From IMG/VR virus record IMGVR_UViG_3300025687_000022: DNA of 64,000 bases; one strand, written 5' to 3'. Positions 201-30,738 of the stretch are shown in pieces. Made by a program: the position numbers and the translations under genes. Source of the DNA: a virus. Below the pieces are notes generated by a model. The model searched no databases, was not told where the DNA came from, and worked only from the letters and a program-made list of their open reading frames with translations. Position 1 is the first letter of the stretch, and each line of letters starts with the position of its first letter.

Positions 201-1337
201 TCAGACATTTTGTTTTCCACTCATGTTAAATGGTCTTTCTAAATCTACAATGTTTATCTCTGCGGGCTCATCAGTTAGTTTAAATTTTCTAAAAATGAAA
301 TCTAAATATGTCACAAATCTTGAAATCTCAGTTTCAACTATTTGTTTCATTTCTTGCTCTAACGCCTCTTCGGCTTCTAAGATGGCTATATCGTAATCCT
401 CATTTTCTTCTATATCTTCATCAGAATCAACATCAATCAATTTTTTATAATATTCAAATACTTTTGGTGCTAAAGACTCTCTCATTCTTTGAATGTAATA
501 TTGTCTCTGTATAATATAAATTGGCATTAAAATTTCAGAGATAATCTCTCTTTTTATATTTTCTTTATTGTTGATGTAATTTTCAACTGATTTAATTTTT
601 GTATAAAATGCATTCCTAATTTGGCGGAAAAAAGAATCTGAATTTATTTTGTCATTCTGTATTGTATAGATACTTTTCATATCTTCTGTAAATTTTTGCG
701 AGTCTTCTAGAAAATTATTAAAATTGGTGCTTTTAATTGATAAAGTTTCTCCAAATCCAACAAGAATAAAATCTGAATTTTTATACCCGACTAAGACAGA
801 GCCGTCTTTCCTGCCTGTGAAAACTAATCCATGTATTTTTTGTTTTTCACTTGCATTGTTTTCTAAATATGTTGAAAATGCAAGAGCTTGTTCGCTTGTG
901 AATGGCTTATCTGTTCTGTTGAGCAAACTTGTTTCGTTACAAATCATTTCTAACTCTTCGTCTATAAATAAATCATTTTGTTCTAATTGCTGTTTTAAAT
1001 TATGATTTCTTCCATATACTTTTTTTGCCTCTTTATAATCAAAAATCGCATATTTATTTAAATTTTTAACTTCAAATTTAAAAACAAAATCACCATATTC
1101 ATATAAGAGATCATTTGAATTTCTAACGGTATAAATACCACGACCATAAAGGTCGCCCTCGCCTGGAATAAACCCTTTTTCTCTTAACGTTTCTATTCTA
1201 TTTAAAATTTCGTTTTTTTGAAGACTTTCATTTCCTCTAGAGCCTTTACCGAAAGCATGATAAACAATAGCTTTATTTTCAAATGGTATAATCTCTTCAG
1301 AGATAAACTGTCGCCAATTTTCAAATAGAAGCTTCAT
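201..1337 (-). CDS. Leader-bearing protein with possible ADP-ribosyltransferase (PARP-like H-Y) N-terminal domain
   Basis: 378 aa; starts MKLLFENWRQFISEE; VYHAF...KGF...GDLYGRGIYT resembles the H...G-x-x-Y-G-x-G-I-Y motif of PARP/ART folds. Confidence 0.45.
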   Translation of the reverse strand: MKLLFENWRQFISEEIIPFENKAIVYHAFGKGSRGNESLQKNEILNRIETLREKGFIPGEGDLYGRGIYTVRNSNDLLYEYGDFVFKFEVKNLNKYAIFDYKEAKKVYGRNHNLKQQLEQNDLFIDEELEMICNETSLLNRTDKPFTSEQALAFSTYLENNASEKQKIHGLVFTGRKDGSVLVGYKNSDFILVGFGETLSIKSTNFNNFLEDSQKFTEDMKSIYTIQNDKINSDSFFRQIRNAFYTKIKSVENYINNKENIKREIISEILMPIYIIQRQYYIQRMRESLAPKVFEYYKKLIDVDSDEDIEENEDYDIAILEAEEALEQEMKQIVETEISRFVTYLDFIFRKFKLTDEPAEINIVDLERPFNMSGKQNV

Positions 1338-1348
1338 TGTGTCATACC

Positions 1349-1930
1349 TTACCAGAATCTACCGGGGACATTTGTACCAAAGTCTTTATGAGCCCTGCAA
1401 GCCCAATAACCGGGTTTTGTTTTATCTTTTTTCTGATCGCACTTGTGCCTTGCAGCAAAACTTTTACGAGCTTCTGGGTCGTTCCAGTTGCCTTTTAGAC
1501 CACCTTTTGCGTCACCATAAGTAACTTTCTTGACATTACCTGTTTTTGGATCGCGAACATAAACTTTATATTTCTTTCCTGAACCAGTATTTTTGGTTGG
1601 CTTGTTTAGTGGCGGGTCTTTTTTCTTGGACTCTTCTTCTAAAACTTCATCGTACATTGGAAAATCAAGCGGGACTCTTTCACCTTCAAATATCGCCCAC
1701 TCACCTAAATCGGTATGCTTGAGGGTATGAAGATCAATTAACTGAGGATTAATTTCTTTATTCTCGTACATCTTTCTTGCTTCGTGAATAACACGAAAAT
1801 AGTTATCAGACCCAATACGATAAATATTTCTTGAAAAAGGAATCTTATTTTCAAGATGGTAGTCTACCATTTCAATAGCTTCGGTTTCTTCTTTAATTAT
1901 TTGCTTTAATTTAGCTTCTGTTATTTTCAT
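1349..1930 (-). CDS. Conserved large-phage hypothetical protein (DUF6321-like C-terminus) with MKIT leader
   Basis: KKYKVYVRDPKTGNVKKVTYGD...RKSFAARHKC...PGYWAC motif; MKITEAKLKQIIKEE start. Confidence 0.6.
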   Translation of the reverse strand: MKITEAKLKQIIKEETEAIEMVDYHLENKIPFSRNIYRIGSDNYFRVIHEARKMYENKEINPQLIDLHTLKHTDLGEWAIFEGERVPLDFPMYDEVLEEESKKKDPPLNKPTKNTGSGKKYKVYVRDPKTGNVKKVTYGDAKGGLKGNWNDPEARKSFAARHKCDQKKDKTKPGYWACRAHKDFGTNVPGRFW

Positions 1931-2952
1931 GGTTGGTTTCCTTTGGATACGTTTAAAACTTCCATAAAATGTTCGTATGCTGTGCCGTAGTATTCAGAAG
2001 ATTGAAACAATCTTCGTAGTACTCGTGGCAGCGACTCACAGAAGGTGAGATCAAGGCTCGTCAGGTTCGTACAGCCCGCCAGACCGTCTACGTTCTCCAG
2101 CGACGTGCACCAGTAAGCGTCGAGGGTCGTCAGATTCGTACAGCCCGCCAGACCGTCTACGTTCTGCAGTGACCTACACCGGCTGAGGTCGAGGTCCGTC
2201 AGGTTCGTAAGCCCCTGGAGCCCGTCTACGTTCTGAAGCGACTTGCAATTGCTGAGGTCGAGACTCGTCAGGTTCGTAAACCCCTGGAGTGCATCTACGT
2301 TCTGAAGCGACTTGTTCCCGGTGAGGAAGAGGCTCGTCAAGTTCGTAAGCCCCTGGAGCCCGTCTACGTTCTGCAGCGACGAGCACCTTTCGAGGTTGAG
2401 GTCCGTCAGGTTCGTAAGCCCCTGGAGCCCATTTACGTTCTGCAGCGACGAGCACCATCCGAGGTCGAGGCTCGTCAGGCTCGTGCAGCCCTTTAGCCCG
2501 TCTACGTTCTCCAGCGAATAGCAATGGTTGATGTCGAGGCTCGTCAGGCTCGTAAGCCCCTGGAGTCCGTCCACATTACGCAGCGAATTGCAATAGCTGA
2601 GGTCTATTTTTGTTGTAACGTTTAGTTCACGTAAGCCTGACAAGAAATTAACATTTTCTTCTTCTATATCTGACTCTGCAAACTGATCAATTACTTCTAG
2701 CTTTTTTAAGATTTCGCTATTTCCTGCTGGATCGCTGGCTTTAATTACGTCTTTGTACAGTAAATAAACCTCTACTCCTTGTGCAAACTCCCAAGGATCA
2801 TTTGAAGATAGAAGTCTTATTATTTTTTGTGCCGGCGTAAGTTCTTCCTCTTCTTCATAATCATAATCATCATCATATTCGTCTTCTTCAATAAGAAGCT
2901 TAACAACTTCTTCTTTGATGATCTGATTCAATTTTGATTTAGTTATTTTCAT
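1927..2952 (-). CDS. Leucine-rich repeat protein (LRR-1, ~9 modules, cap type A)
   Basis: 23-aa repeats LTxLxLxxCxSLQNVDGLxGxTN; MKIT leader; acidic linker. Confidence 0.9.
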   Translation of the reverse strand: MKITKSKLNQIIKEEVVKLLIEEDEYDDDYDYEEEEELTPAQKIIRLLSSNDPWEFAQGVEVYLLYKDVIKASDPAGNSEILKKLEVIDQFAESDIEEENVNFLSGLRELNVTTKIDLSYCNSLRNVDGLQGLTSLTSLDINHCYSLENVDGLKGCTSLTSLDLGWCSSLQNVNGLQGLTNLTDLNLERCSSLQNVDGLQGLTNLTSLFLTGNKSLQNVDALQGFTNLTSLDLSNCKSLQNVDGLQGLTNLTDLDLSRCRSLQNVDGLAGCTNLTTLDAYWCTSLENVDGLAGCTNLTSLDLTFCESLPRVLRRLFQSSEYYGTAYEHFMEVLNVSKGNQP

Positions 2953-3806
2953 CCTTTTTTACCTGATTTTGATTTCTTGCCCCAATTTCCACGCTCTCCA
3001 CAAGCTGATGGTGTTGGTCTGCAAGAAGGATATTTAGATCTTTTTTCATCTCCAGACCTACCGCATGGAGAGCACTTCTTTTTGCCTGTCTTTTCGTCCT
3101 TTCTGCAAGTGTTGCAATCAACCCAGCCACCTTTCTTTCCAGGTGCTCCTTTACGACCAAACCAATCGCGAAGAGAAGTTTCAGATGATGGCTTCTTAGT
3201 TAGTTTTCTTTTTTTTTCATTTAGCTCTTTTTGTATTTCTTCGTCAATAAGAGAACTAAGAAAATCTGCCTGAGAGCCATGCTTTTTAACAGAATCTTCA
3301 AGTTGACCAATAATTTCTTTTATTTTCTTAATATCTTGGTCGGACATTTCTTTGCTTTCAAAAACTTTATTTATTTCTTCATCAATTATTTGATCGAGAT
3401 GCTCAAAATCAATAGATTCTTTTTTGGAATTGCCCCAATTTTTAGCACCTACTTTACGACATTTAACAAGTGCCCCTGAAGCGTATGCAGATGGCCAAAC
3501 TTTATAACGAGATTTAACTTTATGATAACAAGCATCTTTCTTTCCTGAAGAATTCTTTTTCTTTTTTCTATCAGCTACCTTGCGAGCACGTTTCTTGCCC
3601 TTTTGTTGCTTTTTCTTTTTCTCGTTTATTTCTTCTTCCTCAAGAGTGGCGGTGCCTCCTGCTTTTTTATAAAGTTGAGATGCTTCTTCTTTTGAGATCA
3701 TGCCAAGTCGAAGCATTTTTTTAATAGCTTCTCTTTGCCTTTGTTTTCTTTCCTCGTTAGAACGAGTAATTTCTTCTTCGTTAATATCACCATATAAATC
3801 TTGCAT
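2949..3806 (-). CDS. Conserved phage hypothetical protein (basic, Cys-containing)
   Basis: DACYHKVKSRYKVWPSAYASGALVKCRK and LRDWFG...GGWVDC...KYPSCRP motifs I recognise from large marine phages. Confidence 0.6.
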   Translation of the reverse strand: MQDLYGDINEEEITRSNEERKQRQREAIKKMLRLGMISKEEASQLYKKAGGTATLEEEEINEKKKKQQKGKKRARKVADRKKKKNSSGKKDACYHKVKSRYKVWPSAYASGALVKCRKVGAKNWGNSKKESIDFEHLDQIIDEEINKVFESKEMSDQDIKKIKEIIGQLEDSVKKHGSQADFLSSLIDEEIQKELNEKKRKLTKKPSSETSLRDWFGRKGAPGKKGGWVDCNTCRKDEKTGKKKCSPCGRSGDEKRSKYPSCRPTPSACGERGNWGKKSKSGKKG

Positions 3807-3862
3807 AGTTTTGGTATCCTTGCTTTAAATAGTTAGCAGTCAAAGGACAATACAAAAAAATA

Positions 3863-4795
3863 TTATCCTTTTAAAACTTCCATAAACTGCTCGTATGCTG
3901 TGCCACTGCTATCAGATTCAAACCTTTCTTGTAATTCTGGTGGTAGCGATGAGCACTCTATGAGGGAGAGGCTCGTCAGGTTCGTGCAGCCCTTCAACCC
4001 ATCTACGTTCTGCAGCGAATTGCAGAAGCCGAGGTTGAGGTACATCAGGTTCGTGCATTCCTTTAGCCCGTCTACGTTCTCCAGCGACTCGCAGAAGCTG
4101 AGGTAGAGGTACATCAGGTTCGTGCATTCCTTTAGCCCGTCCACGTTCTGCAGCGACTTGCACCTGTTGAGGTTGAGCCAATTCAAGTTCGTACAGCCCG
4201 CCAGCCCGTCTACGTTCTGCAGCAACTCGCATTTGTAGAGGTTGAGGTCCGTCAGGTTCGTGAGTCCTTGGAGCCCGTCTACGTTCTCCAGCGACGTGCA
4301 CCCGTTGAGTTTGAGGCTCGTCAGGTTCTTGCAAAACCTTAAAAAATCAACGTTTGTGATAAAATCATTTGCAATATTAAGTCTCTCAATCTGATCAAGC
4401 ATATTTTTAACACGATCAGATTTTTCAGCAAAATAGTTTAAAATCATCCCAAGTTGTTGCGGAACAATTTCTTGCGGAAGATCAAATCCTTGTGTAGTTA
4501 TTGAATTACTTTTTGAGTCGAAAACGAAATGACTTGCAATTGTATCGATGAGTTGTTGATATTCGAGTTGTGAAAATCCAGGTTGTGGATCTTCAAGGGC
4601 GTCAAGAATTGAAAGACCTTGCTGTACATTAGCAGAATCATCTGAAATTAGAAGCTTGATTATTTTTTGTGCGTAAGTAAGTTCTTCTTCTTCGTAATCA
4701 TAATCATCATAATCATCATATTCGTCTTGTTCAACAAGAAGCTTAACAACTTCTTCTTTGATTATTTGCTTTAGTTTAGTTTTGGTGATTTTCAT
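3863..4795 (-). CDS. LRR protein (LRR-2, ~6 modules, cap type B)
   Basis: 23-aa LRR modules; MKIT leader. Confidence 0.9.
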   Translation of the reverse strand: MKITKTKLKQIIKEEVVKLLVEQDEYDDYDDYDYEEEELTYAQKIIKLLISDDSANVQQGLSILDALEDPQPGFSQLEYQQLIDTIASHFVFDSKSNSITTQGFDLPQEIVPQQLGMILNYFAEKSDRVKNMLDQIERLNIANDFITNVDFLRFCKNLTSLKLNGCTSLENVDGLQGLTNLTDLNLYKCELLQNVDGLAGCTNLNWLNLNRCKSLQNVDGLKECTNLMYLYLSFCESLENVDGLKECTNLMYLNLGFCNSLQNVDGLKGCTNLTSLSLIECSSLPPELQERFESDSSGTAYEQFMEVLKG

Positions 4796-5742
4796 GGTTG
4801 GTTTCCTTTAGATGCATTTAAAGCTTTCATAAACTGTTCGTATGCTGTGCCGCTGCTATCAGTTCCAAAATATTTTTGCAATTTTATTGGCAGCGACTTG
4901 CACCCTTCGAGGCTGAGGCTTATCAGATTCGTGCAGTCCTCCAGACCGTCTACGTTCTGCAACGACTCGCACCTGTAGAGGTCGAGTTCCGTCAGGTTCG
5001 TGCATTCCTTTAACCCGTCTACGTTCTCCAGCGACTCGCACCCTTCGAGGGTGAGGTGCGTCAGGTTCGTGCATTCCTTTAGCCCGTCTACGTTCTGCAG
5101 CGACTTGCACCCTTGGAGGTCGAGGGTCGTCAGACTCGCACAGCCCCCCAGCCCATCTACGTTCTGCAGCTTATCGCACCCGTTGAGATAGAGGGTCGTC
5201 AGGTTCGAGCAGCCCTTCAGCGCGTCTACGTTCTCCAGCGACTTACATTCACTGAGGTCGAGCCACGTCAGGTTCGTAAGCCCCTCCAGCCCGTCTACGT
5301 TCTCCAGCGAGTTGCAGAAGCCGAGGTCGAGCCTCCACAGGTTCGTAAGCCCCTGGAGTCCGTCCACGTTCTGCAGTGATTTGCACCCTTCGAGGATGAT
5401 TTTTTCTGTAACGTTTAGAACACTTAAGCCCGACAAGAAATTAACGTTTTGTATGTCTGGCGACCTTGCAAACTGATCAATCACTCTTAATTTTTCTAAG
5501 ATCTGATTATTTCCTGCTGGATCGCTGGCTTCAATATCGTCTTTGAAAAGTAAATAAACCTCTAATCCTTGTGCAAAAGTGCCAGGATCAGGTGAAGATA
5601 GAAGTCTGATTATTTTTTGTGCGTAAGTAAGTTCTTCTTCCTCTTCTTCGTAATCATAATCATCATATTCGTCTTGTTCAATAAGAAGCTTAACTACTTC
5701 TTCTTTGATGATTTGCTTTAAAGTTGCTTTAGTGATTTTCAT
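4792..5742 (-). CDS. LRR protein (LRR-3, ~8 modules, cap type A)
   Basis: 23-aa LRR modules; ATGA overlaps with both neighbours. Confidence 0.9.
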   Translation of the reverse strand: MKITKATLKQIIKEEVVKLLIEQDEYDDYDYEEEEEELTYAQKIIRLLSSPDPGTFAQGLEVYLLFKDDIEASDPAGNNQILEKLRVIDQFARSPDIQNVNFLSGLSVLNVTEKIILEGCKSLQNVDGLQGLTNLWRLDLGFCNSLENVDGLEGLTNLTWLDLSECKSLENVDALKGCSNLTTLYLNGCDKLQNVDGLGGCASLTTLDLQGCKSLQNVDGLKECTNLTHLTLEGCESLENVDGLKECTNLTELDLYRCESLQNVDGLEDCTNLISLSLEGCKSLPIKLQKYFGTDSSGTAYEQFMKALNASKGNQP

Positions 5743-6638
5743 GGTTGGTTTCCTTTGGATGCATTTAAAGCTTTCATAAACTGTTCGTATGCTGTGCCGA
5801 TGTGCTCAAAAGAATGAAAAGATCTTTGCAGTGCTCGCGGCAGCGACTCGCACCCGTTGAGGAAGAGGCTCGTCAGATTCGTGCAGCCCTTCAGCGCGTC
5901 TACGTTCTGCAGCGACGTGCACCCGCTAAGGTCGAGGCTTTTCAGGTTCGTAAGCCCCTGGAGCCCGCCTACGTTCTGCAGCGACTCGCATCTGTTGAGG
6001 TAGAGGGACGCCAGATTCGTACAGCCCTCCAGCCCGTCTATGTTCTGTAGCGACGTGCACCAGCTGAGGTCGAGTTCCGTCAGGTTCGTGCATTCTTTTA
6101 GCCCGTCTACGTTCTGCAGCGACTCGCACCCGCTGAGGTGGAGCCAATCCAGATTCATAAGCCCCTGGAGCCCGTCTACGTTCTGCAGCGAATCGCACCT
6201 GCTGAGGTCGAGTTCCGTCAGGTTCGTGAGCCTTTGGGGCTCGTCTACGTTCTGGAACCCGTCTACGTTCTTCAGCGACTCGCACCCGCTGAGGTCTATT
6301 TCTTCTGTGACGTTTAGATCACTTAAGACTGACAAGGAACCAACGTCTGGTATATCTGACCCTGCAAACTGATCAATCACTCTTAGCTTTTCTAAGATTT
6401 GGCTATTTTCTGTTTGAGCGTTAGCTTCAATATCGTCTTTGACCAAAGAATAAATCTCTACTCCTTGTGCAAAAGTGTCAGGATCTTTTGAAGATAGAAA
6501 TCTGATTATTTTTTGTGCCGGCGTAAGTTCTTCTTCTTCGTAATCATAATCATCATAATCATATTCGTCTTGCTCAACAAGAAGCTTAACAACTTCTTCT
6601 TTGATTATTTGCTTTAAAGTTGATTTGGTTATTTTCAT
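5739..6638 (-). CDS. LRR protein (LRR-4, ~7 modules, cap type A)
   Basis: 23-aa LRR modules. Confidence 0.9.
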   Translation of the reverse strand: MKITKSTLKQIIKEEVVKLLVEQDEYDYDDYDYEEEELTPAQKIIRFLSSKDPDTFAQGVEIYSLVKDDIEANAQTENSQILEKLRVIDQFAGSDIPDVGSLSVLSDLNVTEEIDLSGCESLKNVDGFQNVDEPQRLTNLTELDLSRCDSLQNVDGLQGLMNLDWLHLSGCESLQNVDGLKECTNLTELDLSWCTSLQNIDGLEGCTNLASLYLNRCESLQNVGGLQGLTNLKSLDLSGCTSLQNVDALKGCTNLTSLFLNGCESLPRALQRSFHSFEHIGTAYEQFMKALNASKGNQP

Positions 6639-7687
6639 AATGAGTTCCTTTTAGATGCTTTTAGGGCTTCCATAAACTTCTCGTGTGCTGTGCCACTGCT
6701 ATCAGTTGCAAAATATTCTTGCAATTCTGGTGGCAGCGACGAACACCAGCTGAGTTCGAGAATCGTGAGCTTTGTAAGCCCCTGGAGTGCATCTACGTTC
6801 TGCAGCGACTCGCAACCGGCGAGGTTCAGGGTCGTCAGGTTCGTAAGCCCTTGGAGCCCGTCTACGTTCTGCAGCGACGAGCACATGTTGAGGTAGAGGG
6901 TCGTCAGGTTCGTAAGCCCCTGGAGCCCATCCACGTTCTGCAGCGACTTGCACCCTTGGAGGTCGAGGGTCGTCAGGTTCGTAAGCCCCTGGAGCCCATT
7001 TATGTTCTGCAGTGACTTGCACCCTCTGAGGTAGAGGGTCGCCAGGTTCATAAGCCCCTGGAGTGAATCTACGTTCTGCAGCGACGTGCACCCGCTGAGG
7101 TCGAGGGTCGTCAGGTTCGTGCAGCCCTCCAGCCCGTCTACGTTCTGCAGCGACGTGCACTCGTAGAGGTTGAGGGTCGTCAGGTTCGTGCAGCCCTTCA
7201 GCCCATTTACGTTCTGCAGCGACTCGCACCAGCCGAGGTTGAGGCGCGTCAGGTTCGTGCAAAACCTTAAAAAATCAACGTTTGTGATAAAATCATTAAG
7301 ATAGAACACCAGATTCTCAATCTGAGCAAGCATATCTTTAAAATGATCAGATTTTTCAGCAAAATAGTTTAAAATCATCTCAAGGGTTTCATTTGGGATC
7401 TTAAATCTTCGAATAGTTATTCTGCCGCCTGATCTAAAATCGATATAACTTGCAATTGTATCGATGAGTTGTTGATCTTCAAGAGCGTCAAGAATTGTAA
7501 GACCTTGTTCTACATTAGCAGAATCATCTGAAGATAGAAGCTTGATTATTTTTTGTGCCGGTGTAAGTTCTTCTTCTTCTTCTTCATAATCATCATCATA
7601 ATAATCATCATATTCGTCTTGCTCAACAAGAAGCTTAACAACTTCTTCTTTGATTATTTGCTTTAACTTAGTTTTAGTGATTTTCAT
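6635..7687 (-). CDS. LRR protein (LRR-5, ~8 modules, cap type B)
   Basis: 23-aa LRR modules. Confidence 0.9.
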   Translation of the reverse strand: MKITKTKLKQIIKEEVVKLLVEQDEYDDYYDDDYEEEEEELTPAQKIIKLLSSDDSANVEQGLTILDALEDQQLIDTIASYIDFRSGGRITIRRFKIPNETLEMILNYFAEKSDHFKDMLAQIENLVFYLNDFITNVDFLRFCTNLTRLNLGWCESLQNVNGLKGCTNLTTLNLYECTSLQNVDGLEGCTNLTTLDLSGCTSLQNVDSLQGLMNLATLYLRGCKSLQNINGLQGLTNLTTLDLQGCKSLQNVDGLQGLTNLTTLYLNMCSSLQNVDGLQGLTNLTTLNLAGCESLQNVDALQGLTKLTILELSWCSSLPPELQEYFATDSSGTAHEKFMEALKASKRNSL

Positions 7688-8853
7688 GGTTGGTTTCCTT
7701 TGGATGCGTTCAAAGCTTTCATAAACTTCTCATGCGCTGTGCTACTGTTATCAGATTCAAACAATTTTTGTAATCCTAATGGCAGCGACCTGCACCTGTA
7801 GAGGTCGAGGCTTTTCAGGTTCGTGCAGCCCTTCAGCCCGTCTACGTTCTGCAGTGACCTGCAATAGCGGAGGTCGAGGCTCGTCAGGTTCGTGCAGCCC
7901 TCCAGACCGTCTACGTTCTGCAGAGACTCGCAGAAGCGGAGGTCGAGGGTCGTCAGGTTCGTGCAGCCCTTCAGCCCGTCTACGTTTTCCAGCGAACTGC
8001 AATAGCGGAGGTCGAGGCTCGTCAGGTTCGTGCATTCCTTTAGCCCGTCTACGTTCTCCAGCGACTTGCACTCGTAGAGGGTGAGGGTCGTCAGGTTCGT
8101 GCATTCCTTTAACCCGTCTACGTTCTGCAGCGACCTGCACCAGCTGAGGTCGAGGGTCGTCAGATTCGTGCAGCCCTCCAGCACATCTACGTTCTCCAGC
8201 GACGTGCACCTGTTGAGGTCGAGTTTCGTCAGGTTCGGTAGGGACTTCAAGACACCGAGCGCCCCAAGAGACTGCAGCGCCGTGAACGTGCCTCCGCCGA
8301 GGTAGAGGGTCGTCAGGTTCGTAAGCCCCTGGAGCCCGTCTACGTTCTGCAGCTTCTCACACCAGTAGAGGTCGAGTTCCGTCAGGTTCGTACAGCCCGC
8401 CAACCCGTTTACGTTCTCCAGCGAATCGCACTCGTAGAGGCGCAGGATCGCCAGACTCGCACAGCCCTTCAGCCCGTCTATGTTCTGCAGTGACTTGCAA
8501 GAGCTAAGGTCTATTTGCTCTGTAATATTTATCTCTTTTAAACCTGACAAGAAGTCCACGTTTTGTATATCTGACAATGCAAACTGATCAATTACTTGTA
8601 GCTTTGCTATAATCTCATCATTTTCTGTTGGAGCGTTAACTTCAATTTCGTCTTTGACCAATGAATAAATCTCTACTCCTTGTGCAAAAGTGTCAGGATC
8701 ATTTGAAGATAGAAATCTTATTATTTTTTGTGCGTAAGTAAGTTCTTCCTCATCATCATAATCATCATAATCATCATATTCGTCTTGTTCAATAAGAAGC
8801 TTAACAACTTCTTCTTTGATTATTTGCTTTAACTTAGTTTTAGTGATTTTCAT
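7684..8853 (-). CDS. LRR protein (LRR-6, ~11 modules, cap type A)
   Basis: 23-aa LRR modules plus one atypical longer module (GGGTFTALQSLGALGVLKSLPN). Confidence 0.9.
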   Translation of the reverse strand: MKITKTKLKQIIKEEVVKLLIEQDEYDDYDDYDDEEELTYAQKIIRFLSSNDPDTFAQGVEIYSLVKDEIEVNAPTENDEIIAKLQVIDQFALSDIQNVDFLSGLKEINITEQIDLSSCKSLQNIDGLKGCASLAILRLYECDSLENVNGLAGCTNLTELDLYWCEKLQNVDGLQGLTNLTTLYLGGGTFTALQSLGALGVLKSLPNLTKLDLNRCTSLENVDVLEGCTNLTTLDLSWCRSLQNVDGLKECTNLTTLTLYECKSLENVDGLKECTNLTSLDLRYCSSLENVDGLKGCTNLTTLDLRFCESLQNVDGLEGCTNLTSLDLRYCRSLQNVDGLKGCTNLKSLDLYRCRSLPLGLQKLFESDNSSTAHEKFMKALNASKGNQP

Positions 8854-9905: not shown

Positions 9906-9947
9906 TTCTATAATAATCCTAAAATTAAATCAACCAAAGCTTCTACA

Positions 9948-10968: not shown

Positions 10969-10969
10969 T

Positions 10970-11713
10970 TTATCTGCAAACTCTCATTTTTAAATCTGTC
11001 ATTTGGCAAAAATCAACCAAAGCGTTGTCTAAATCAAGAACTTGTATTGGTTGAACCCAAATAATGTCCCCAACGACCTGTAAATTTGGTTGCCATTCGA
11101 CATCGACACCCCAAAGAATACCAACTAAGTCGCCATTATCGTCATAGACGACAGATCCAGACGATCCAAACCAGCCGTAACTATGCATAATTATCTGAAT
11201 TCCGGTATCCCCCGTCGTTTCATAGCCAGCAACACGACCTCTAAAGGTCATAATTTCGTGAGTTGAGGGAAAACCAGAGTAAGTTATTTCCTCTCCTACG
11301 TTCATTTGCTTTTTGCGTGGAGAATATCTAATCGGTTTTGCATTTTGCAAGTCAGCAACAGGATAAACAATAGCGATATCATAAACTGGATCTGCATAAA
11401 TAAGCACCCCAGGCATAGCTTCATTACCATGAGTGATCAAAAATAGTTTTCCGATCTCATTTCCAGTTACATGCTTTGCTGTTAAAATAAAATTTGAGCC
11501 TTTATACCTGATCAGGGAACCAGATCCGTGACCTTGCCCAATACTTAAGACTCTAACCGCAGCATTTCGCACTTGCATTTCAACTTTAGACGAAATTTCT
11601 GATACAGGAAAGACCCCTTCAATTAGATTTTCGTCAGAAAATGGCAACTGAAGGGGCTCAGAGTGAGCCTGAGTTCCAAAAAGCAAGCAAAAAGCAAAAA
11701 GTAATTTTTTCAT
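10970..11713 (-). CDS. Trypsin-like serine protease with signal peptide
   Basis: LTAKHV, DIAI and GSSGS catalytic triad motifs; MKKLLFAFCLL N-terminus. Confidence 0.85.
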   Translation of the reverse strand: MKKLLFAFCLLFGTQAHSEPLQLPFSDENLIEGVFPVSEISSKVEMQVRNAAVRVLSIGQGHGSGSLIRYKGSNFILTAKHVTGNEIGKLFLITHGNEAMPGVLIYADPVYDIAIVYPVADLQNAKPIRYSPRKKQMNVGEEITYSGFPSTHEIMTFRGRVAGYETTGDTGIQIIMHSYGWFGSSGSVVYDDNGDLVGILWGVDVEWQPNLQVVGDIIWVQPIQVLDLDNALVDFCQMTDLKMRVCR

Positions 11714-11739
11714 TTATTGTTTCTCCCACAATAAATAGA

Positions 11740-12210
11740 TTACAGGGCTCTTATTTGCGTTTCCATCCAAGCATTTGCCTGAGAATGTGTATCAAAAAGA
11801 GGGGAAAATCCAGATAGATACCTTAGAGTTGCCCCCTCTACCGCAGCCCATTGCCACTTCCAGCTACTCTCAGAACAAAATACAAGAGCAGAAGACACGG
11901 AAGACATTTTAGATGCTTTAATATTCATAGGCGAAGCATGCATTTGAAGAATCTGGTTGCACTTCTTAAGGTAAACAGGGTCTTGCTGCGGTGTATCCTG
12001 CTTATTTTCTTTAATTTCTTCTCTTTCTTGCGGAAGATCTGCGCGGATAATGGTATATTTTGAACGACGCTGTTTTGTAGTAAACTCTTGATAAACGTTA
12101 AGCTTAAAAAAAGTTTCTGCGTTATTATCATCTTCGATCTCAAAAGAAGTCATTGGTGACTTTGCGCGCTGCCCAGACTTAAAAATCTTGTATACGTTCC
12201 ATGTACTCAT
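11740..12210 (-). CDS. Hypothetical protein
   Basis: 156-aa ORF with GGAG RBS upstream. Confidence 0.55.
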   Translation of the reverse strand: MSTWNVYKIFKSGQRAKSPMTSFEIEDDNNAETFFKLNVYQEFTTKQRRSKYTIIRADLPQEREEIKENKQDTPQQDPVYLKKCNQILQMHASPMNIKASKMSSVSSALVFCSESSWKWQWAAVEGATLRYLSGFSPLFDTHSQANAWMETQIRAL

Positions 12211-12742
12211 TTTGCACTCCTTCGATTGATTGCCATTTTAATATACCAAGAATGATCGAAGTCTGCAAGTGTTTTTCTTCAATAAATCGATAAAAAGCAA
12301 AATTTGTTCGTTTTTCTAAGGGACCATACCAGATAATCTCCCAAAAAACATGATCTTCAAATTTCATGCTTTCTTTATGTTCGCATGACAAAAGAAGACC
12401 AATATTACCTCCGATTATATCAATAATAATATCTCCGTTTGACAGCTTTATTTTTTTTGCTTCTTTTTCTAGCGCTTCTCTTTCCAATTTTTTACAATAA
12501 TAACCATTGATTAGTAGAAATAGAATTGTAATATTTTTCAATGGAAATAAAATCTGTTTGTTCTTGGGCTGGCAGTTTTAAAGGAAGCGGTTGATTATCT
12601 CCAACAACAGTAGAAGGAATTAGTTTTTGATATTCTGTTCTTTCGTGGTTGTTGATTAACAATAAGTTGAAAAAGTAAAATAAAATACTCATTGTTATAA
12701 ATGTTGCTATAAATGTTCTCATTTTATATTTTCCTGCCTTGG

Positions 12743-14668
12743 CTAAACTTTGATCCTATCAATAATATATGGATGGTGATAAGATAGATCTTTATATAGT
12801 TTTTTCATTACTTTTTTAGTAATGTCACCAATTTCTTCTTTAGTTTCTTTGGAAGATAAAGATTTAGACAACTCATCTTTAAGAATTTTTTCAATTTCTT
12901 TTTTAAGAACTTTATCAAGTTCTTTTGCTATTAAATCTTTAATATCAGATTTGTCACTTCTTGTTAGTTCTTCGTTGATTTGTTTATTTTCTGTGGCTAG
13001 TCTTTGTAAGCGAGTAATATAATTTTGCTCTTCAATTTCATCAAGCGTCTCTTGAAATGATTCATTTCTTAAACTTTGTTTTATAATTTTTTGCTTTAAG
13101 TCGGGTACAGATTCAAATATTTCTCTTCTCATATATTCTTGGACACTGATATAGTTGACAAAATCTGTAACTAAATCTTCTGCGGTTAAATCAAAGTCAA
13201 AATCTGTAACCATTTTAAAAATCATGTCAGGTTTTGAATTTAAATATTGATTAGTTATCATTTTAGCCATTACATCTGGAATATAAGCTCTTTCTCTGCC
13301 ATTGTATTTTATTATCCAATGGCGTGCGTTCTCGTAGTGTTCTTCTTCCAAGGCTTTTTGCATCAGCTTCTCGATGTACATTTGTAAAATATATTCTAAC
13401 CAAGATTGTATTCTTATACGAGTTAGATCAATCATGAAGTTTTCTAAATTACCACCATGTTTAATAGCGATTATAACCTTGTATAATTCCTCAGCAATAG
13501 GATTGCTACTAATGTCTTCTGAAGGGGAATTTAAAAATTCTTGGACTTCGAAAACTGCACCGAGCATGAACTCCGCAGCTTCTATTTCATCTGCTGTGAT
13601 GTTCCCTGATTCTTCTAAGGGGGCAAAAACGTCGTTAATTGTTTGCTCTAAATGAGATAAGAACGCTTGTGGGTCGCTATTTTGTTTAGCAAATTCAACT
13701 AATTGGCTTATTTGATCGTACAAGTTTTCTCCTGATACCGAACTTATACTTGAGCCAGCCTCTTCGTATGATAATTTTATAAATTCTCCTATAATTTGTG
13801 GAAGTAGTTCTTCAATACTATTTCCAGTATAAGATTCTTTTATTAACTTTCTATGTTCGTATAATTCGTGGTTGTCGATAAAATATCGCAATTCTGCTTC
13901 CATACGAGTAATTCGATCGTTTGTTCTTGCGACTTCTTTCAATTGGGAAACAGTCACCCCTGGTTTAAAAAAGTCTTTTTCTGATAAAAATATAAAAAAT
14001 TCCTCTATAAAATTAGTTAACTCTTCTTGAGAGGGCTCAGTAATACCTTGCACAATATTGTAAGAAAATTGCGCACCATAATTTGGTGTTCGCATGTATT
14101 CTTTTATTAAAATGTGATATTCATCTTTAAATTCAGGTTTTACAATTTCATCATGATCTTCAAGACGCATACAAATAAGAAGAAGTTCCATACTAAAATT
14201 GTCCGATAGCTGTGTTATTACAAGATCCTGCTCATCTTTGTCTTTGATTGTATAAAGAAAAACCAAATTTTCAATTGGATGCTCACTATACTGAAGATCC
14301 ATCACACCTGTTTCTTCAAAGGCGGCTTTTTCGCCCATTCTTAAAGTAAGTTTGATGTTCTCAAGAAAGCGCCGGTTGGAACCTGTAGCTTCTGGGTAAT
14401 CAAAACGAGTATAAGGTGGGACTCCGAATTCAAAAGACACAACTGTATGTAACTCGTCTGACAAAGCTTCTTCCGCAAAGAATGCAACATCATATTTCAG
14501 GGTTTTAGAAAGAAAAGCGGGAATACGCCTGAATAGCTCTCTAACTATTGCTCGAATTTCTGCGGTAGTTTCTGGTATGTCTTTTAATAATTCTTGTTGG
14601 TATAAATGTTGTAGATTTCTTTTTATTTCTTCTACAATTTCAGGTTTTACAATTTCAGGTTTAGGCAT
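12743..14668 (-). CDS. Large acidic helical hypothetical protein
   Basis: 641-aa ORF; internal 10-aa repeat EIVKPE; no recognised domain. Confidence 0.7.
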   Translation of the reverse strand: MPKPEIVKPEIVEEIKRNLQHLYQQELLKDIPETTAEIRAIVRELFRRIPAFLSKTLKYDVAFFAEEALSDELHTVVSFEFGVPPYTRFDYPEATGSNRRFLENIKLTLRMGEKAAFEETGVMDLQYSEHPIENLVFLYTIKDKDEQDLVITQLSDNFSMELLLICMRLEDHDEIVKPEFKDEYHILIKEYMRTPNYGAQFSYNIVQGITEPSQEELTNFIEEFFIFLSEKDFFKPGVTVSQLKEVARTNDRITRMEAELRYFIDNHELYEHRKLIKESYTGNSIEELLPQIIGEFIKLSYEEAGSSISSVSGENLYDQISQLVEFAKQNSDPQAFLSHLEQTINDVFAPLEESGNITADEIEAAEFMLGAVFEVQEFLNSPSEDISSNPIAEELYKVIIAIKHGGNLENFMIDLTRIRIQSWLEYILQMYIEKLMQKALEEEHYENARHWIIKYNGRERAYIPDVMAKMITNQYLNSKPDMIFKMVTDFDFDLTAEDLVTDFVNYISVQEYMRREIFESVPDLKQKIIKQSLRNESFQETLDEIEEQNYITRLQRLATENKQINEELTRSDKSDIKDLIAKELDKVLKKEIEKILKDELSKSLSSKETKEEIGDITKKVMKKLYKDLSYHHPYIIDRIKV

Positions 14669-14699
14669 AAATTTATCCCTTTTTACAGTAGATAGTATC

Positions 14700-15464
14700 T
14701 TATCTTTTTGAAAGAGCTTTTTTTAGTCTTTCATTAATAACATTACGATGGTGCCAACGTGATTTTTTGGTTATGTTTTTCTTTAAGATTTTAGATACTC
14801 TTTCGTTCATTTCTTTGATAAGATCTGCGTGTTCAACCTCATCTAATTCTTCAGTTTCTTCAGTTTCTTCAGAATTATCAGGTTCAAATGGATATTCTGA
14901 GTCAAAGAAAGGAATAACAAATTTACGAGACAACCTTTGAACCGGAGGTCCAGCGCTGGGACCACCTTTTGGATAAGCCATAGTATACATTCTGGAACCC
15001 CCAGGCTCTTGTGAATAATAATCAGATCTAAAATCAGCTTTATCGCCAGTTAAAACAACATCTCTTCTCTGTATTGTTTCGCCGGTATCACAAAGAATAT
15101 ATTCGTATATCATTTTACCGTCTTGCATAGAACCCCAAATAACAGCTTCTTGTCCGAATTCTTTGCCAAATTGTAAAATCTCATCACGAGCAACATTTGG
15201 AATAATAAAAGATCTTTCTTCATTTCCAAATTTACCACGGATTCGCCTGTAGCCAATCTTCATACTTTTTAGCTTGTCTTCAAACTGCCTTAGAAGTGCG
15301 TCGTTCTCTTGTTTTGATAATTCTTCGGCATTTGGGTTTTCTGAGGTCATGATACCGACAGATTGTATGGTTGGTCTTTGCCCTGTTATAATTCTAATAA
15401 TGTCTCTAAATTGAGATTCTTCATTTAATAAAAACTTTTTCCATTCTGTTATTATTTTTTTCAC
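14700..15464 (-). CDS. Possible SAM lyase (T3 SAMase-like / DUF3293-like) with leader
   Basis: IMTSENP...N...L...GY....G.FG.EERSFII...FGQEAVIW pattern; MKKIITEWKKFLLNEE leader. Confidence 0.5.
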   Translation of the reverse strand: MKKIITEWKKFLLNEESQFRDIIRIITGQRPTIQSVGIMTSENPNAEELSKQENDALLRQFEDKLKSMKIGYRRIRGKFGNEERSFIIPNVARDEILQFGKEFGQEAVIWGSMQDGKMIYEYILCDTGETIQRRDVVLTGDKADFRSDYYSQEPGGSRMYTMAYPKGGPSAGPPVQRLSRKFVIPFFDSEYPFEPDNSEETEETEELDEVEHADLIKEMNERVSKILKKNITKKSRWHHRNVINERLKKALSKR

Positions 15465-15548
15465 ATCATGCTCCTTTTAAAATAATATAACTTTATTATA
15501 TCGCTGTGTCAATAAAATTTACTTTTCTATAAGTTCTTGAATTGAGCC

Positions 15549-16442
15549 TTAGTTTCCTTTGGATGCGTTTAAAGCTTTCATAAACTGTTCGTGTGCTGTG
15601 TCGTATTCATCAGATTTAAACAAATCTTGTAATCCTAATGGCAGTGACGCGCACCTGCGGAGGTCGAGGGTCGTCAGGTTCGTGCATTCCTTCAGTACGT
15701 CTACGTTCTGCAGCGACTTGCACCAGTTGAGCTTGAGCGTCTCCAGGTTTGTGCATTCCTTTAACCCGTCTACGTTCTGCAGCGACTCGCACCAGTAGAG
15801 GTAGAGGTACGTCAGGTTCGTACAGCCCTCCAACCCGTCTACGTTCTGCAGCGAATCGCACTCCCAGAGGTTGAGGGTCGTCAGGTTCGTACAGCCCTTC
15901 AGTCCGTCTACGTTCTGCAGCGACTCGCACCCCCAGAGTTCGAGGCTCGTCAGGTTCGTGCAAAACTTTAAAAAATCAACGTTTGTCATAAATTTATCTT
16001 TAATATTAAGACTCTCAATCTTAGCAAGCATATATTGAACACGAGAAGATTTTTCAGCAAAATAGTTTAAAATCATCCAAAATGTTACATTTGAGACTTC
16101 AAAACCTTGAATAGTTATTAAACTACTTTTTGAGTCGAAAGTGAAATGACTTGCAATTGTATTGATGAGTTGTTGATATTCGAGTTTGAGCCGTTGATAT
16201 TCGAGTTGTGAAACTCCAGGTTGTGGATTTTCAAGGGCGTCAAGAATTCCAAGACCTAGATTTACATATTCAGGATCAGGTGAAGATAGAAATCTGATTA
16301 TTTTTTGTGCTTCAGTAAGTTCTTCTTCTTCTTCTTCTTCTTCTTCTTCTTCTTCATCATAATCATCATATTCGTCTTGTTCAATAAGAAGCTTAACAAC
16401 TTCTTCTTTGATGATTTGCTTTTTAGTTTTAGTTATTTTCAT
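15549..16442 (-). CDS. LRR protein (LRR-7, ~5 modules, hybrid A/B cap, expanded poly-Glu)
   Basis: LRR modules; (TCT)n tract at ~16320-16353; leader lacks one Leu. Confidence 0.9.
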   Translation of the reverse strand: MKITKTKKQIIKEEVVKLLIEQDEYDDYDEEEEEEEEEEEELTEAQKIIRFLSSPDPEYVNLGLGILDALENPQPGVSQLEYQRLKLEYQQLINTIASHFTFDSKSSLITIQGFEVSNVTFWMILNYFAEKSSRVQYMLAKIESLNIKDKFMTNVDFLKFCTNLTSLELWGCESLQNVDGLKGCTNLTTLNLWECDSLQNVDGLEGCTNLTYLYLYWCESLQNVDGLKECTNLETLKLNWCKSLQNVDVLKECTNLTTLDLRRCASLPLGLQDLFKSDEYDTAHEQFMKALNASKGN

Positions 16443-17158
16443 GGTTGGCTTCTCTTAGATGCGTTCAAAGCTTCCATAAACTTCTCGTATGCTGTGCCAC
16501 TGCTATCAGTTTTAAACAATTGTTGTAATTTTATTGGCAGCGACCTGCACAGCCAGAGGCTGAGGCTCGTCAGGCTCGTAAGCCCCTGGAGCCCGTCTAC
16601 GTTCTGCAGCGAATAGCACCCGGCGAGGCTGAGGCTCGTCAGGCTCGTAAGCCCCTGGAGCCCGTCTACGTTCTGCAGCGACTTGCAGAAGCTGAGGTAG
16701 AGTCTCGTCAGGCTCGTGCATTCCTTTATCCCGTCTACGTTCTGCAGCGACTCGCAATCGCTGAGGTCGAGGGTCGTCAGGCTTGTAAGCCCCTGGAGCC
16801 CGTCTACGTTCTGCAGCGACGAGCACCAGCGGAGAACTATTTTTTCTGTAATATTTAGCTCACTTAAGCCTGACAAGAAGTCAACATCTTGTATTTTTGA
16901 CTCTGCAAACTGATCAATTACTTTTAGCTTTTCTAAGATCTGATCATTTTCTGTTGGAGCATTAACTTCAATATCTTCTTTCAATTGGGTATAAAAAGAT
17001 AATGCTTGTGCAAAGTAACCAGGATCATTGCCGCTTAAACGATCTAGAATTGTTAACGCATATTGTTTATATTCATTTTCTTGATCTTCATTTTCTGTTA
17101 AAAGTTTGGTTACTTCTTCTTTGATTATTTGCTTTAGTTTAGTTTTGGTTATTTTCAT
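16439..17158 (-). CDS. LRR protein (LRR-8, ~5 modules, divergent A cap)
   Basis: LRR modules; MKIT leader. Confidence 0.9.
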   Translation of the reverse strand: MKITKTKLKQIIKEEVTKLLTENEDQENEYKQYALTILDRLSGNDPGYFAQALSFYTQLKEDIEVNAPTENDQILEKLKVIDQFAESKIQDVDFLSGLSELNITEKIVLRWCSSLQNVDGLQGLTSLTTLDLSDCESLQNVDGIKECTSLTRLYLSFCKSLQNVDGLQGLTSLTSLSLAGCYSLQNVDGLQGLTSLTSLSLWLCRSLPIKLQQLFKTDSSGTAYEKFMEALNASKRSQP

Positions 17159-17161
17159 AAT

Positions 17162-17902
17162 TTATCTATCCCATACAGAATGATTTAGCCATCTATTTTT
17201 TATATCCTCAGCTTCATCTGATGTAACTATTCCGCTTTGGACTTGGTTATGTAAATAGTTTTGTATTAGCTCTTCGATACTTTTTTGTGATTTTGATGCC
17301 TCTGCTCTAAATCCTATTAAAAATGCAGGAGTCTCGCAAGCGCTTGTAAAATACTCATACATTGAATTATATTCTTTTGTTGGCAGATAAGTGCAATTTG
17401 GTCGCTGAAAAGGTCTACCATCTTGAGTAAAATGATGAAGCTCGTGCGCCACAACATTAAATAGCTCATTTTCAATTGAAGCGATGTTGGAACCAGATAA
17501 GAAAAGTCCCGGTCTAATAGTAAAATCAACAATAATCTTGCCACCATCCTCAGAATAGTCTGAAGCACCATCTATATTCCAGCCAACATGATTGCTGTCA
17601 AAATTGGTTGGAGTAAAAATAACTTCTACTTCAAATGCAGGTATAGCATCCTCATAGTTATCACTCCAGACTTCAACATCAACAGGATAATCCCAAGAAT
17701 AAAAGAAAGTTTTTTTATGTTTTGTTTTCTTTCCAGTTGCTGGTAGTATTTTTAAAATATCTTCAACGATTTTTTCTACTGTTTCTTTATAATAAAAATC
17801 AGCATCTTGTAATCTAAACTCTGGAAACTCCATATCAACCTCCAATAAGTTTAATATTTCTTCTTTGATTATTTGCTTTAAATTTGATTTGGTTATTTTC
17901 AT
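17162..17902 (-). CDS. MKIT-leader protein with HExxH zinc-metalloprotease-like motif
   Basis: VAHELHHFTQ followed by YFTSACETPAF. Confidence 0.55.
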   Translation of the reverse strand: MKITKSNLKQIIKEEILNLLEVDMEFPEFRLQDADFYYKETVEKIVEDILKILPATGKKTKHKKTFFYSWDYPVDVEVWSDNYEDAIPAFEVEVIFTPTNFDSNHVGWNIDGASDYSEDGGKIIVDFTIRPGLFLSGSNIASIENELFNVVAHELHHFTQDGRPFQRPNCTYLPTKEYNSMYEYFTSACETPAFLIGFRAEASKSQKSIEELIQNYLHNQVQSGIVTSDEAEDIKNRWLNHSVWDR

Positions 17903-18876
17903 GGTTGGCTTGTCTTAGATGCATTTAAAGCTTCCATAAACTTCTCGTGTGCTGTACCGCTGCTATCAGTTCCAAAATATTTTTGCAATTTTATTGGCAG
18001 CGACTTGCACTCTTCGAGGCTGAGGCTTATCAGATTCGTGCAGCCCTCCAGCCCGTCTACGTTCTGCAGCGACTCGCACTCGTAGAGGTCGAGGTTCGCC
18101 AGGTTAGTGCAACCCTCCAGCCCGTCTACGTTCTGCAGTGACTCGCACCCGAAGAGGCTGAGGCTCGTCAGGTTCGTGCAGCCCTTCAGCCCGTCTACGT
18201 TCACCAGCGACCTGCAATAGCTGAGGTCGAGGCTCGTCAGGTTTGTGCATTCCTTTAGCCCGTCTACGTTCTGTAGTGACTCACACCCGTTGAGGTCGAG
18301 GGTCGTCAGGTTCGTGCATTCCTTTAGCACGTCTACGTTCTTCAGCGATGAGCACCCGGTGAGGTAGAGGGTCGTCAGGTTTGTGCAGCCCTCCAGTCCA
18401 TCCACGTTCTGCAGCGACCCGCAATAGCTGAGGTCAAGCTTCGTCAGGCTCGTAAACCTCTGGAGTGCATCTACGTTCTCCGGCGATTTGAGTCCCTTCA
18501 GCCCGTCTACGTTCTTCAGTGATCTGCACCCTTTGAGGATGATTTTTTGTGTAACGTTTAGTTCACGTAAGCCTGACAAGAAATTAACATTTTTTTCTTT
18601 TATATCTGAATCTGCAAACTGATCAATTACTTCTAGCTTTTCTAAGATTTGGCTATTTTCTGTTGGAGCGTTAGCTTCAATATCGTCTTTGACCAAAGAA
18701 TAAATCTCTACTCCTTGTGCAAAAGTGTCAGGATCAGGTGAAGATAGAAATCTGATTATTTTTTGTGCCGGCGTAAGTTCTTCCTCTTCATAATCATCAT
18801 ATTCGTCTTGCTCAACAAGAAGCTTAACAACTTCTTCTTTGATTATTTGCTTTAAATCTGATTTAGTTATTTTCAT
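17899..18876 (-). CDS. LRR protein (LRR-9, ~8 modules, cap type A)
   Basis: LRR modules. Confidence 0.9.
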   Translation of the reverse strand: MKITKSDLKQIIKEEVVKLLVEQDEYDDYEEEELTPAQKIIRFLSSPDPDTFAQGVEIYSLVKDDIEANAPTENSQILEKLEVIDQFADSDIKEKNVNFLSGLRELNVTQKIILKGCRSLKNVDGLKGLKSPENVDALQRFTSLTKLDLSYCGSLQNVDGLEGCTNLTTLYLTGCSSLKNVDVLKECTNLTTLDLNGCESLQNVDGLKECTNLTSLDLSYCRSLVNVDGLKGCTNLTSLSLFGCESLQNVDGLEGCTNLANLDLYECESLQNVDGLEGCTNLISLSLEECKSLPIKLQKYFGTDSSGTAHEKFMEALNASKTSQP

Positions 18877-19640
18877 GGTCGGCTTCCTTTGGATGCATTT
18901 AAAGCTTTCATAAACTTCTCGTGTGCTGTGCCTCTGTTATCAGTTTTAAACCATCGTTGTAATTCTGATGGCAGCGAATAGCACATGCTGAGGTCGAGGG
19001 TCGTCAGGTTCGTGCAGCCCTCCAGCCCGTCTATGTTCTTCAGCGACGTGCACCAGCTGAGGTCGAGGCTTTTCAGGTTCGTGCAGCCCTTCAGTCCGTC
19101 TACGTTCTGCAGCGACTCGCACGCGCCGAGTTCAAGGTACGTCAGATTCGTGAGTCCCTGGAGCCCGTCTACGTTCTCCAGGGACGTGCACCAGTTGAGG
19201 TTGAGTCCCCTCAGGTTCATGCAAAAACTTAAAAAATCAACGTTTGTCATAAATTCATCTGTAATATCAAGATTCTCAATCTGAGCAAGCATATTTTTAA
19301 CATGAACAGATTTTTTAGCAAAATAATTTAAAATCATCCCAAGTTCTTGCGGAAGATCAAATCCTTGTGTAGTTATTGAAGCACTTGTTGGGTCGAAATC
19401 GATATAACTTGCAATTGTATCGATGAGTTGTTGATCTCCAAGGTCGTCAAGAATTCCAAGACCTAGCACTACATTAGCAGAATCATCTGAAGTTAGAAGC
19501 TTGATTATTTTTTGTGCGTAAGTAAGCTCTTCTTCTTCGTAATCATAATCATCATAATCATCATATTCGTCTTGCTCAACAAGAAGCTTAACAACTTCTT
19601 CTTTAATTATTTGCTTTAAAGTTGATTTGGTTATTTTCAT
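18873..19640 (-). CDS. LRR protein (LRR-10, ~4 modules, cap type B)
   Basis: LRR modules. Confidence 0.9.
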   Translation of the reverse strand: MKITKSTLKQIIKEEVVKLLVEQDEYDDYDDYDYEEEELTYAQKIIKLLTSDDSANVVLGLGILDDLGDQQLIDTIASYIDFDPTSASITTQGFDLPQELGMILNYFAKKSVHVKNMLAQIENLDITDEFMTNVDFLSFCMNLRGLNLNWCTSLENVDGLQGLTNLTYLELGACESLQNVDGLKGCTNLKSLDLSWCTSLKNIDGLEGCTNLTTLDLSMCYSLPSELQRWFKTDNRGTAHEKFMKALNASKGSRP

Positions 19641-30678: not shown

Positions 30679-30738
30679 GACCTTTCCTTTGTGGTGTCAA
30701 CAATATAACCGACTGCACAAATCTGTCAAGAACTTTTT

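Follow-up and report, generated by a model that had tools for sequence, protein, structure and literature searches.

Two short N-terminal peptides shared by sixteen genes of a large aquatic phage as candidate head-addressing tags

Sixteen genes between positions 201 and 19640 of the IMG/VR virus record IMGVR_UViG_3300025687_000022 start with either of two short peptides, twelve of them with the peptide that we call the class 1 tag and four with the class 2 tag. The stretch analysed here, 64,000 nucleotides in length, is referred to as the window. We read the two leaders as T4-type N-terminal head-addressing propeptides that would load the proteins behind them into the phage head, and we assign this reading a probability of roughly 0.6. 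That the cargo is also injected and acts before phage gene expression is a further step, in which our confidence is lower.

Results

Two tag classes at the starts of sixteen genes

A preliminary description of the window had claimed that the peptide MKIT[KE]xxLKQIIKEE starts ten leucine-rich repeat (LRR) proteins and two unrelated ones, and that a second type of leader starts four further proteins. The first claim was borne out for all ten LRR genes and for both unrelated genes (1349-1930 and 17162-17902), and the second for four genes (201-1337, 8850-9905, 9948-10502 and 14700-15464). After its Met-Lys/Gln start, class 2 follows roughly the pattern [FIY]-x-x-W-[RK]-x-F-[LI]-x(1,2)-E; 9948-10502 opens with the ATG at 10502 rather than with the TTG at 10517. 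The tagged genes are as follows.

201-1337, minus strand: class 2 tag (first 15 codons, 1293-1337), an ADP-ribosyltransferase (ART)-fold domain (about residues 17-216) and a helical C-terminal part; profile 25.8 bits
1349-1930, minus strand: class 1 tag and a 193-aa basic protein (isoelectric point, pI, 9.2) with a C-terminal phrog_7595 domain; tag profile
1927-2952, minus strand: LRR gene, class 1 tag, acidic linker; tag profile and Pfam
3863-4795, minus strand: LRR gene, class 1 tag; tag profile
4792-5742, minus strand: LRR gene, class 1 tag; tag profile
5739-6638, minus strand: LRR gene, class 1 tag; tag profile
6635-7687, minus strand: LRR gene, class 1 tag; tag profile
7684-8853, minus strand: LRR gene, class 1 tag; tag profile
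8850-9905, minus strand: class 2 tag and a nucleotidyltransferase (NTase)-like protein, with the LRR-cassette junction at the 3' end; profile 28.7 bits
9948-10502, minus strand: class 2 tag and a 184-aa protein with no family match; profile 26.7 bits
14700-15464, minus strand: class 2 tag (GTG start) and a DUF3293 domain; profile 15.8 bits, PF11697 E 2.2e-12
15549-16442, minus strand: LRR gene, class 1 tag one residue short and with a lower profile score; sequence
16439-17158, minus strand: LRR gene, class 1 tag, non-acidic linker; tag profile
17162-17902, minus strand: class 1 tag and an HExxH (zincin-like) domain; profile 22.8 bits
17899-18876, minus strand: LRR gene, class 1 tag; tag profile
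18873-19640, minus strand: LRR gene, class 1 tag, first of the LRR run and preceded by a terminator-like hairpin at 19793-19813; tag profile

The tags were searched with one profile hidden Markov model (HMM) per class, scanned over every open frame of at least 40 aa in six frames. This leader-HMM scan had been proposed in the preliminary description, and on the window it gave 11 class 1 and 4 class 2 matches at 15 bits or more, all of them at the ATG or GTG of long open reading frames (ORFs) and none internal. The same restriction to start codons was seen in two related genomes described below, G001 (9 matches, at least 16 bits) and G025 (12 matches, at least 11 bits). The tags are also unevenly distributed over gene functions: the leader had been expected to be rarer on replication and metabolic enzymes if it addresses proteins to the virion, and the recognised metabolic and housekeeping enzymes of the window carry none. 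The tag-free set comprises ThyX, a chaperonin, an IMPDH/GMP-reductase-like protein, a D12 methylase, AAA_5, NUDIX and the trypsin-like proteases.

A putative cutting motif at the end of the tags

All sixteen tagged genes have an [IL]-x-E motif ending at residue 13-15. As a control, [IL]xE anywhere in residues 8-20 occurred in 24 of 91 other minus-strand ORFs. A similar arrangement was seen in the wider family of the ART-like protein, where a conserved His lies at median residue 24, a Glu precedes this catalytic-site His by 11 residues in 106 of 134 representatives, and L, I, F or V stands two positions before that Glu in 87 of 134. A Sec-type signal peptide would require a hydrophobic core of about 7-15 residues after a basic N-terminus, and on inspection the tags proved to be charged and amphipathic; the Sec reading was rejected because they lack such a core, in contrast to the genuine signal peptide of the neighbouring protease at 10970-11713.

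Selection on the peptide and the junction between cassettes

At the 11 conserved positions of class 1, the copies differ from each other by 135 pairwise synonymous codon differences and 0 nonsynonymous ones, and amino-acid changes are confined to positions 5, 6, 7 and 9. The four class 2 copies have just 23-27 of 45 nt in common (51-60% DNA identity), so no DNA-level repeat accounts for them. The tags are portable peptides under peptide-level selection, not DNA repeats.

These data bear directly on an alternative in which the shared start would be a DNA-level recombination handle and translational-coupling junction that spreads cassettes, the peptide itself having no function. The class 1 copies in the window are indeed nearly identical in DNA and lie behind a conserved stop/ATG-overlap junction that the NTase gene shares, and in T4 the 30-nt coding sequence of the capsid-targeting sequence (CTS) occurs twice and identically in NC_000866, in ipII and ipIII. 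The divergence of the class 2 copies, on which a DNA-only repeat was rejected, the excess of synonymous differences in class 1, and a peptide pattern that is kept in distant genomes with different codons all speak against this explanation, and we regard it as very unlikely.

The junction itself (8850-8870, and on the 5' side of each LRR gene, e.g., 4796-4815) provides a ribosome-binding site and the four final codons, which read GNQP, followed by a stop that overlaps the next ATG. Because the unrelated NTase-like gene also terminates in it, cassette recombination at the GNQP junction is likely, on top of the peptide function.

Portability and exchange of the tags

That the leaders are portable had been part of the original claim, and comparison with homologues upheld it: the tags are phage-specific N-terminal modules, and homologues elsewhere are untagged or have a different N-terminal part. 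The sole homologue of the NTase-like protein among isolated phages, in Flavobacterium phage immuto (37.5% identity), begins at the exact residue after the window tag, with in-frame stop codons upstream. Eight of 11 metagenomic homologues of the HExxH domain have DUF192 (PF02643) and a linker in the tag's place. About 45 metagenomic phage-like LRR sequences all have the class 1 tag first and then one of three linker types, whereas bacterial LRR homologues (e.g., from Chthoniobacter) have membrane anchors or the LRR cap directly at the N-terminus. The cluster of the LRR protein is reported on a contig of 161 kb. When residues 1-40 of the HExxH protein served as the query in a word-index search, nothing other than this protein came back, since the tag by itself has too few words in common.

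Within the ART-fold family, the class 1 tag was found on P0024, P0035, P0038 and P0148 and the class 2 tag on P0016, P0017, P0042, P0099 and P0144, while a third related tag, MxFKxW[LF]xxE, heads the same domain in other members. Since one family bears either class, class 1 and class 2 are functionally interchangeable.

A further case of a domain found in two settings was noticed. Over its last 54 residues, an untagged 641-aa window protein (12743-14668) shares 65% identity with a 90-aa G025 protein (93356-93628; residues 41-90), which opens with a class 1-like tag; one small domain is therefore either tagged alone or borne at the end of a long protein.

Tagged genes in the head-gene clusters of relatives

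The evidence on head genes comes from relatives, not from this genome's own head region. One relative, G001, is a 74-kb IMG/VR contig colinear with the window, its chaperonin 53% and its ThyX 66% identical to those of the window. Three of its genes carry the class 1 tag and six the class 2 tag; their cargo is wholly different and includes a TseH-like hydrolase domain and DUF7178. Three large relatives found via the chaperonin (G025, G026 and G027) have chaperonins 50-60% identical to the window's, and all three encode Peptidase_S77. The preliminary description had proposed a search for a gp21-like protease; in these three and in immuto an S77 protease was present, and the phage's clade encodes a protease of the gp21 type.

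The closest complete relative is G025 (194 kb, 100% complete by CheckV), which is syntenic with window positions 10970-63959 at 33-69% protein identity. Its head genes comprise a T4-type terminase, Portal_T4 (E 1.6e-76), S77 (E 4e-29) and Gp23 (E 4.4e-71). The tag-profile scan of this genome gave 13 N-terminal matches at 9 bits or more. A class 2-tagged 192-aa gene sits between the portal and protease genes, and the next two genes beyond the protease open in a tag-like manner. On the terminase side, six small genes with tags are found within 12 kb, and four class 2 genes at 83-88 kb occupy the place syntenic with the window array. Nine of the ten tagged G025 proteins scanned had no Pfam family at E 0.01, and one had a sub-threshold TipAS match. 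The tagged cargo of window 201-19640 has 0 orthologues in G001 or G025, though both have tagged arrays; from one relative to another the cargo is replaced completely and the tags are retained.

Immuto, whose host is LMO8, also has T4-type portal, protease and capsid genes, and it has tagged genes at 102294, 102880 and 113188 of NC_055915. When its ORFs were ranked by likeness to its own tag family, the best non-seed match (rank 1 of 210) was a 73-aa basic protein encoded at 123355-123576 between portal and protease, the position of the gp67/gp68 slot. A tagged array also goes with an S77 protease in G009 (IMGVR_UViG_3300021963_009993; 181 kb, 38% complete by CheckV). In its locus L020 (38507-59154), at locus coordinates 426-16499, each of 14 consecutive genes within 16 kb opens with MxFKxW[LF]xxE; this array would belong to a much larger phage of roughly 0.5 Mb.

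Other uses of the tag were weighed as well. One is that the tag serves not head loading but as a handle for another common partner, such as a modifying enzyme that would treat it as a leader of the kind found in ribosomally synthesized and post-translationally modified peptides (RiPPs), a chaperonin or a stability protease. The window phage, G001 and immuto each encode their own chaperonin, and the N-terminus of gp23 directs fusion proteins to GroEL (PMC3012670), both of which fit such a handle. It accords poorly with the position of tagged genes inside the head-gene clusters of G025 and immuto, with a 96% complete genome (G022) that has the tag family and an S77 protease and no chaperonin, and with the lack of a radical-SAM or similar enzyme among about 30 window ORFs scanned against Pfam. 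We consider a handle of this kind improbable.

A plain amphipathic or coiled-coil helix used for oligomerisation or mutual docking in the cytoplasm, with neither packaging nor cleavage, seems to us quite unlikely too. The tag is predicted to be helical and detached from the cargo fold, and hydrophobic residues recur in it at i, i+3/4 and i+7, all of which would fit such a helix. It leaves unexplained why the Glu at the tag end is near-invariant across diverged families, why tagged genes adjoin the protease, and why two unlike tags are swapped on one cargo family.

Points that weigh against head loading

Head loading after the manner of T4 would bring these observations together, and several others count against it. 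By eye, no sequence homology links the window tags to the T4 CTS. The cutting motif [IL]xE carries little information, being present in 26% of other ORFs. The likeness between the N-termini of the scaffold proteins and the tags is only moderate (rank 15 among 210 and rank 23 among 256) and no more than suggestive. Two complete 140-kb phages with a truncated ART relative (G020 and G023) gave no S77 match, in genomes whose head genes matched no Pfam family usefully. LRR proteins without their tags would have a pI of 4.1-4.4, which is very acidic. Finally, a strong sigma-70-like promoter (TTGACA, 17 nt, TATATT; 11 of 12 matches) lies at 15484-15512 on the minus strand, directly upstream of the DUF3293 gene, so early transcription is possible for at least this gene. 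This promoter is the best sigma-70-like match in the first 20 kb; the late-promoter motif TATAAATA has a single coding-strand occurrence in the window and none near the tagged genes.

Proteins behind the tags

The AlphaFold2 (AF2) model of the ART-like protein (201-1337) has a pLDDT of 89, and in it the tag is a detached low-confidence helix of residues 2-12. Residues 17-216 gave VIA Z scores of 5.0-6.6 to NatT, MbcT, PARP-1 and ParT over 103-128 aligned residues. H27 and Y69 are invariant in 78 sequences of the family and correspond to the His of the first strand and the Tyr of the G-x-G-x-Y strand that mark the ART fold of the H-Y-E clade, at modest Z; the earlier label "ART-like" is thus supported by the fold. 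The top Foldseek match was 6kyf, "Crystal structure of an anti-CRISPR protein" (E 0.05, probability 0.93). The family has 334 representatives at E<=0.001 among 1.84 billion clusters. For the helical C-terminal part (residues about 226-338), structures of sigma-factor region 4 came up as weak matches (Z about 5), a hint at an activity that might be directed at DNA or at RNA polymerase.

Searches for relatives of the cargo among isolated phages returned little. With tblastn, the ART-like protein had zero matches in 50,697 phage records, and the HExxH protein, an 805-aa protein and a giant-phage ART relative had zero matches in isolated phages. A scan of JGI metagenomes with the ART-like protein found short contigs with distant relatives only. 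When six 8-residue patterns from this protein were run against JGI metagenomes, they had at least 598 matching stretches, all patterns pooled; one of the six was the class 2 tag's initial eight residues.

For 8850-9905, the label "NTase" is plausible as a lead from language-model neighbours, which are viral clusters named nucleotidyltransferase, one of them with PF01909 on a third of its members. For 17162-17902, zinc peptidases make up all of the best structural matches, at weak scores (Z up to 4.6). The earlier label "SAMase-like" for 14700-15464 found no support and was rejected in favour of the Pfam assignment to DUF3293. This domain is also contained in the 3694-aa "structural protein" of Flavobacterium podophage elemo, and therefore occurs elsewhere in a giant protein annotated as part of the virion; a literature search on DUF3293 found no paper. 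The identity of the LRR proteins was confirmed by Pfam on 1927-2952, where LRR_4 matched at E 1.2e-24 together with nine other LRR models.

Weaker starts, neighbouring genes and capsid propeptides

Starts similar to the second leader had also been reported at 48829 and 50860. The likeness is present but much weaker, and we list these two genes separately.

48829-49725, minus strand: possible divergent class 2-like start (weak, below 7 bits), with an N-terminus kept in the G025 orthologue
50860-51639, minus strand: possible divergent class 2-like start (weak, below 7 bits) and the C-terminal domain of a longer G025 protein

The second of these, a 259-aa protein, consists of its weak start and residues 890-1132, the C-terminal quarter, of a 1132-aa G025 protein (117467-120865) that itself opens with a similar start. 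By this comparison, the window gene looks like an internal deletion that would have retained the N-terminal tag.

The window is one arm of a large aquatic phage genome, with nearly all genes on the minus strand. It encodes ThyX, a Cpn60-type chaperonin, an IMPDH/GMP-reductase-like gene, a D12 methylase, eight tRNAs and seven pentapeptide-repeat paralogues. The paralogues, at 30175-46357, all begin with the same stretch of about 28 residues, which is not related to either tag; Pfam Pentapeptide matched 30175-30678 at E 1.4e-38. Trypsin_2 serine protease genes lie at 10970-11713 and 50104-50850, both with G025 orthologues; the N-terminus is a classical signal peptide in one of the two and a hydrophobic helix in the other. 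Megablast of window positions 48000-64000 against the 50,697 phage records gave zero matches, and an exact search with a 40-mer found nothing in IMG/VR or JGI metagenomes.

The N-terminal propeptides of Gp23-type capsid proteins (G025 169619-171538, immuto 126896-128506, and T4 gene 23, L011 8946-10511) have a W-x-K ... L-L-E-G motif. By eye it resembles the class 2 pattern W-[RK]-x-F-L-x-x-E, which is often followed by G; the tag profile stayed below threshold.

Discussion

A possible sequence of events would be as follows. The tag, an amphipathic helix of 13-15 residues, would attach to the prohead's scaffold core during assembly and take the following protein inside; a gp21-type (S77) prohead protease would then cleave after the [IL]-x-E that ends the tag; and the freed cargo would remain in the head with the DNA, where it could exit together with the DNA at infection. 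The cargo set of the window would then comprise ten LRR binders, an ART-fold enzyme, an NTase-like enzyme, an HExxH domain, a DUF3293 protein and two further proteins.

The CTS principle itself is already known from T-even phages. A literature search for the tag strings found no paper describing these sequences, and three features appear to be new: two unlike, interchangeable tag classes in one genome; a spread of the tags over distant aquatic phages with T4-type heads, very large ones included; and further kinds of cargo, above all the ten-member LRR family. A wider and quite tentative idea, to which we give clearly less credence than to head loading as such, is that aquatic phages with T4-type heads (about 150 kb to an estimated 0.5 Mb) share a multi-tag system in which swappable leaders load 10-20 fast-exchanged effectors, and that here ten diversified LRR binders enter the cell by injection, ready to inhibit host defence proteins.

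If multi-tag addressing is true, the repertoire of injected proteins of uncultured phages could be read from sequence alone. If the tags do act as head-loading signals, sequence would be enough to list the proteins that uncultured aquatic phages carry in the capsid and deliver at infection, which are otherwise found only via virion proteomics of cultured phages. Head loading would also mean that the T4 CTS principle reaches distant lineages, with new tag sequences and more than one tag per genome, would add new cargo classes (LRR binders and ART-fold, NTase-like, zincin-like, DUF3293 and TseH-like proteins), and would make natural packaging tags available for engineering non-coli phages.

Comparison with known systems

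The closest parallel is the CTS of the T4 internal proteins (IPs) IPI, IPII and IPIII. As the preliminary description correctly stated, its sequence is MKTYQEFIAE (NC_000866) and it is cut after [IL]-x-E, the site at which the gp21 protease cleaves (PMC9026906). The first ten residues of IPIII are enough for packaging (PMC9026906), the IPs are diverse except for the CTS (PMC3012670), and it has been suggested in review that the CTS principle may be general in T4-like phages (PMC9026906). The window tags resemble the CTS in being short N-terminal peptides on otherwise unrelated, fast-evolving proteins, in their aliphatic-x-Glu end, in copies that can be DNA-identical within a genome, in the presence of a gp21-type S77 protease in the phage lineage, and in a tag that is kept as the cargo changes from one relative to the next. 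The window tags and the CTS both have a Met-Lys start, a hydrophobic core and an aliphatic-x-Glu at the end. They differ in length (13-15 residues in the window vs 10), in that one genome here has at least two unlike tag classes, which are interchangeable on one cargo family, and in the number and nature of the tagged genes, sixteen or more here with much acidic cargo that would be packaged. The window tags would thus work like the CTS by design and are not members of it by sequence.

T4 Alt, a head-packaged ADP-ribosyltransferase, has propeptides that are cut by gp21 (PMC9026906), and the ART-fold protein of the window likewise has an N-terminal extension that ends in the protease motif. It is not a sequence relative of Alt, however; the support for its fold is modest (Z 5.0-6.6) and its C-terminal part differs.

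A likeness to the T4 prohead core proteins gp67 and gp68 lies in the N-termini of the LRR proteins, which join a helix holding [IL]-x-E sites to an acidic run, as in gp67, and in the tagged small genes that fill the slot between portal and protease in immuto and G025. Homology to gp67 or gp68 was not detectable, and the window proteins, unlike these, have large folded cargo domains after the acidic run.

In the giant phages phiKZ, 201phi2-1 and SPN3US, propeptide-bearing ejection proteins are cut after Glu by gp21-like proteases (PMC9026906). There, as proposed here, many head-packaged proteins have N-terminal propeptides, with redundant cut sites after Glu (PMC9026906). The giant phages use S/A-x-E and long propeptides with no common short tag, whereas the phages described here have short tags that are shared from one protein to the next.

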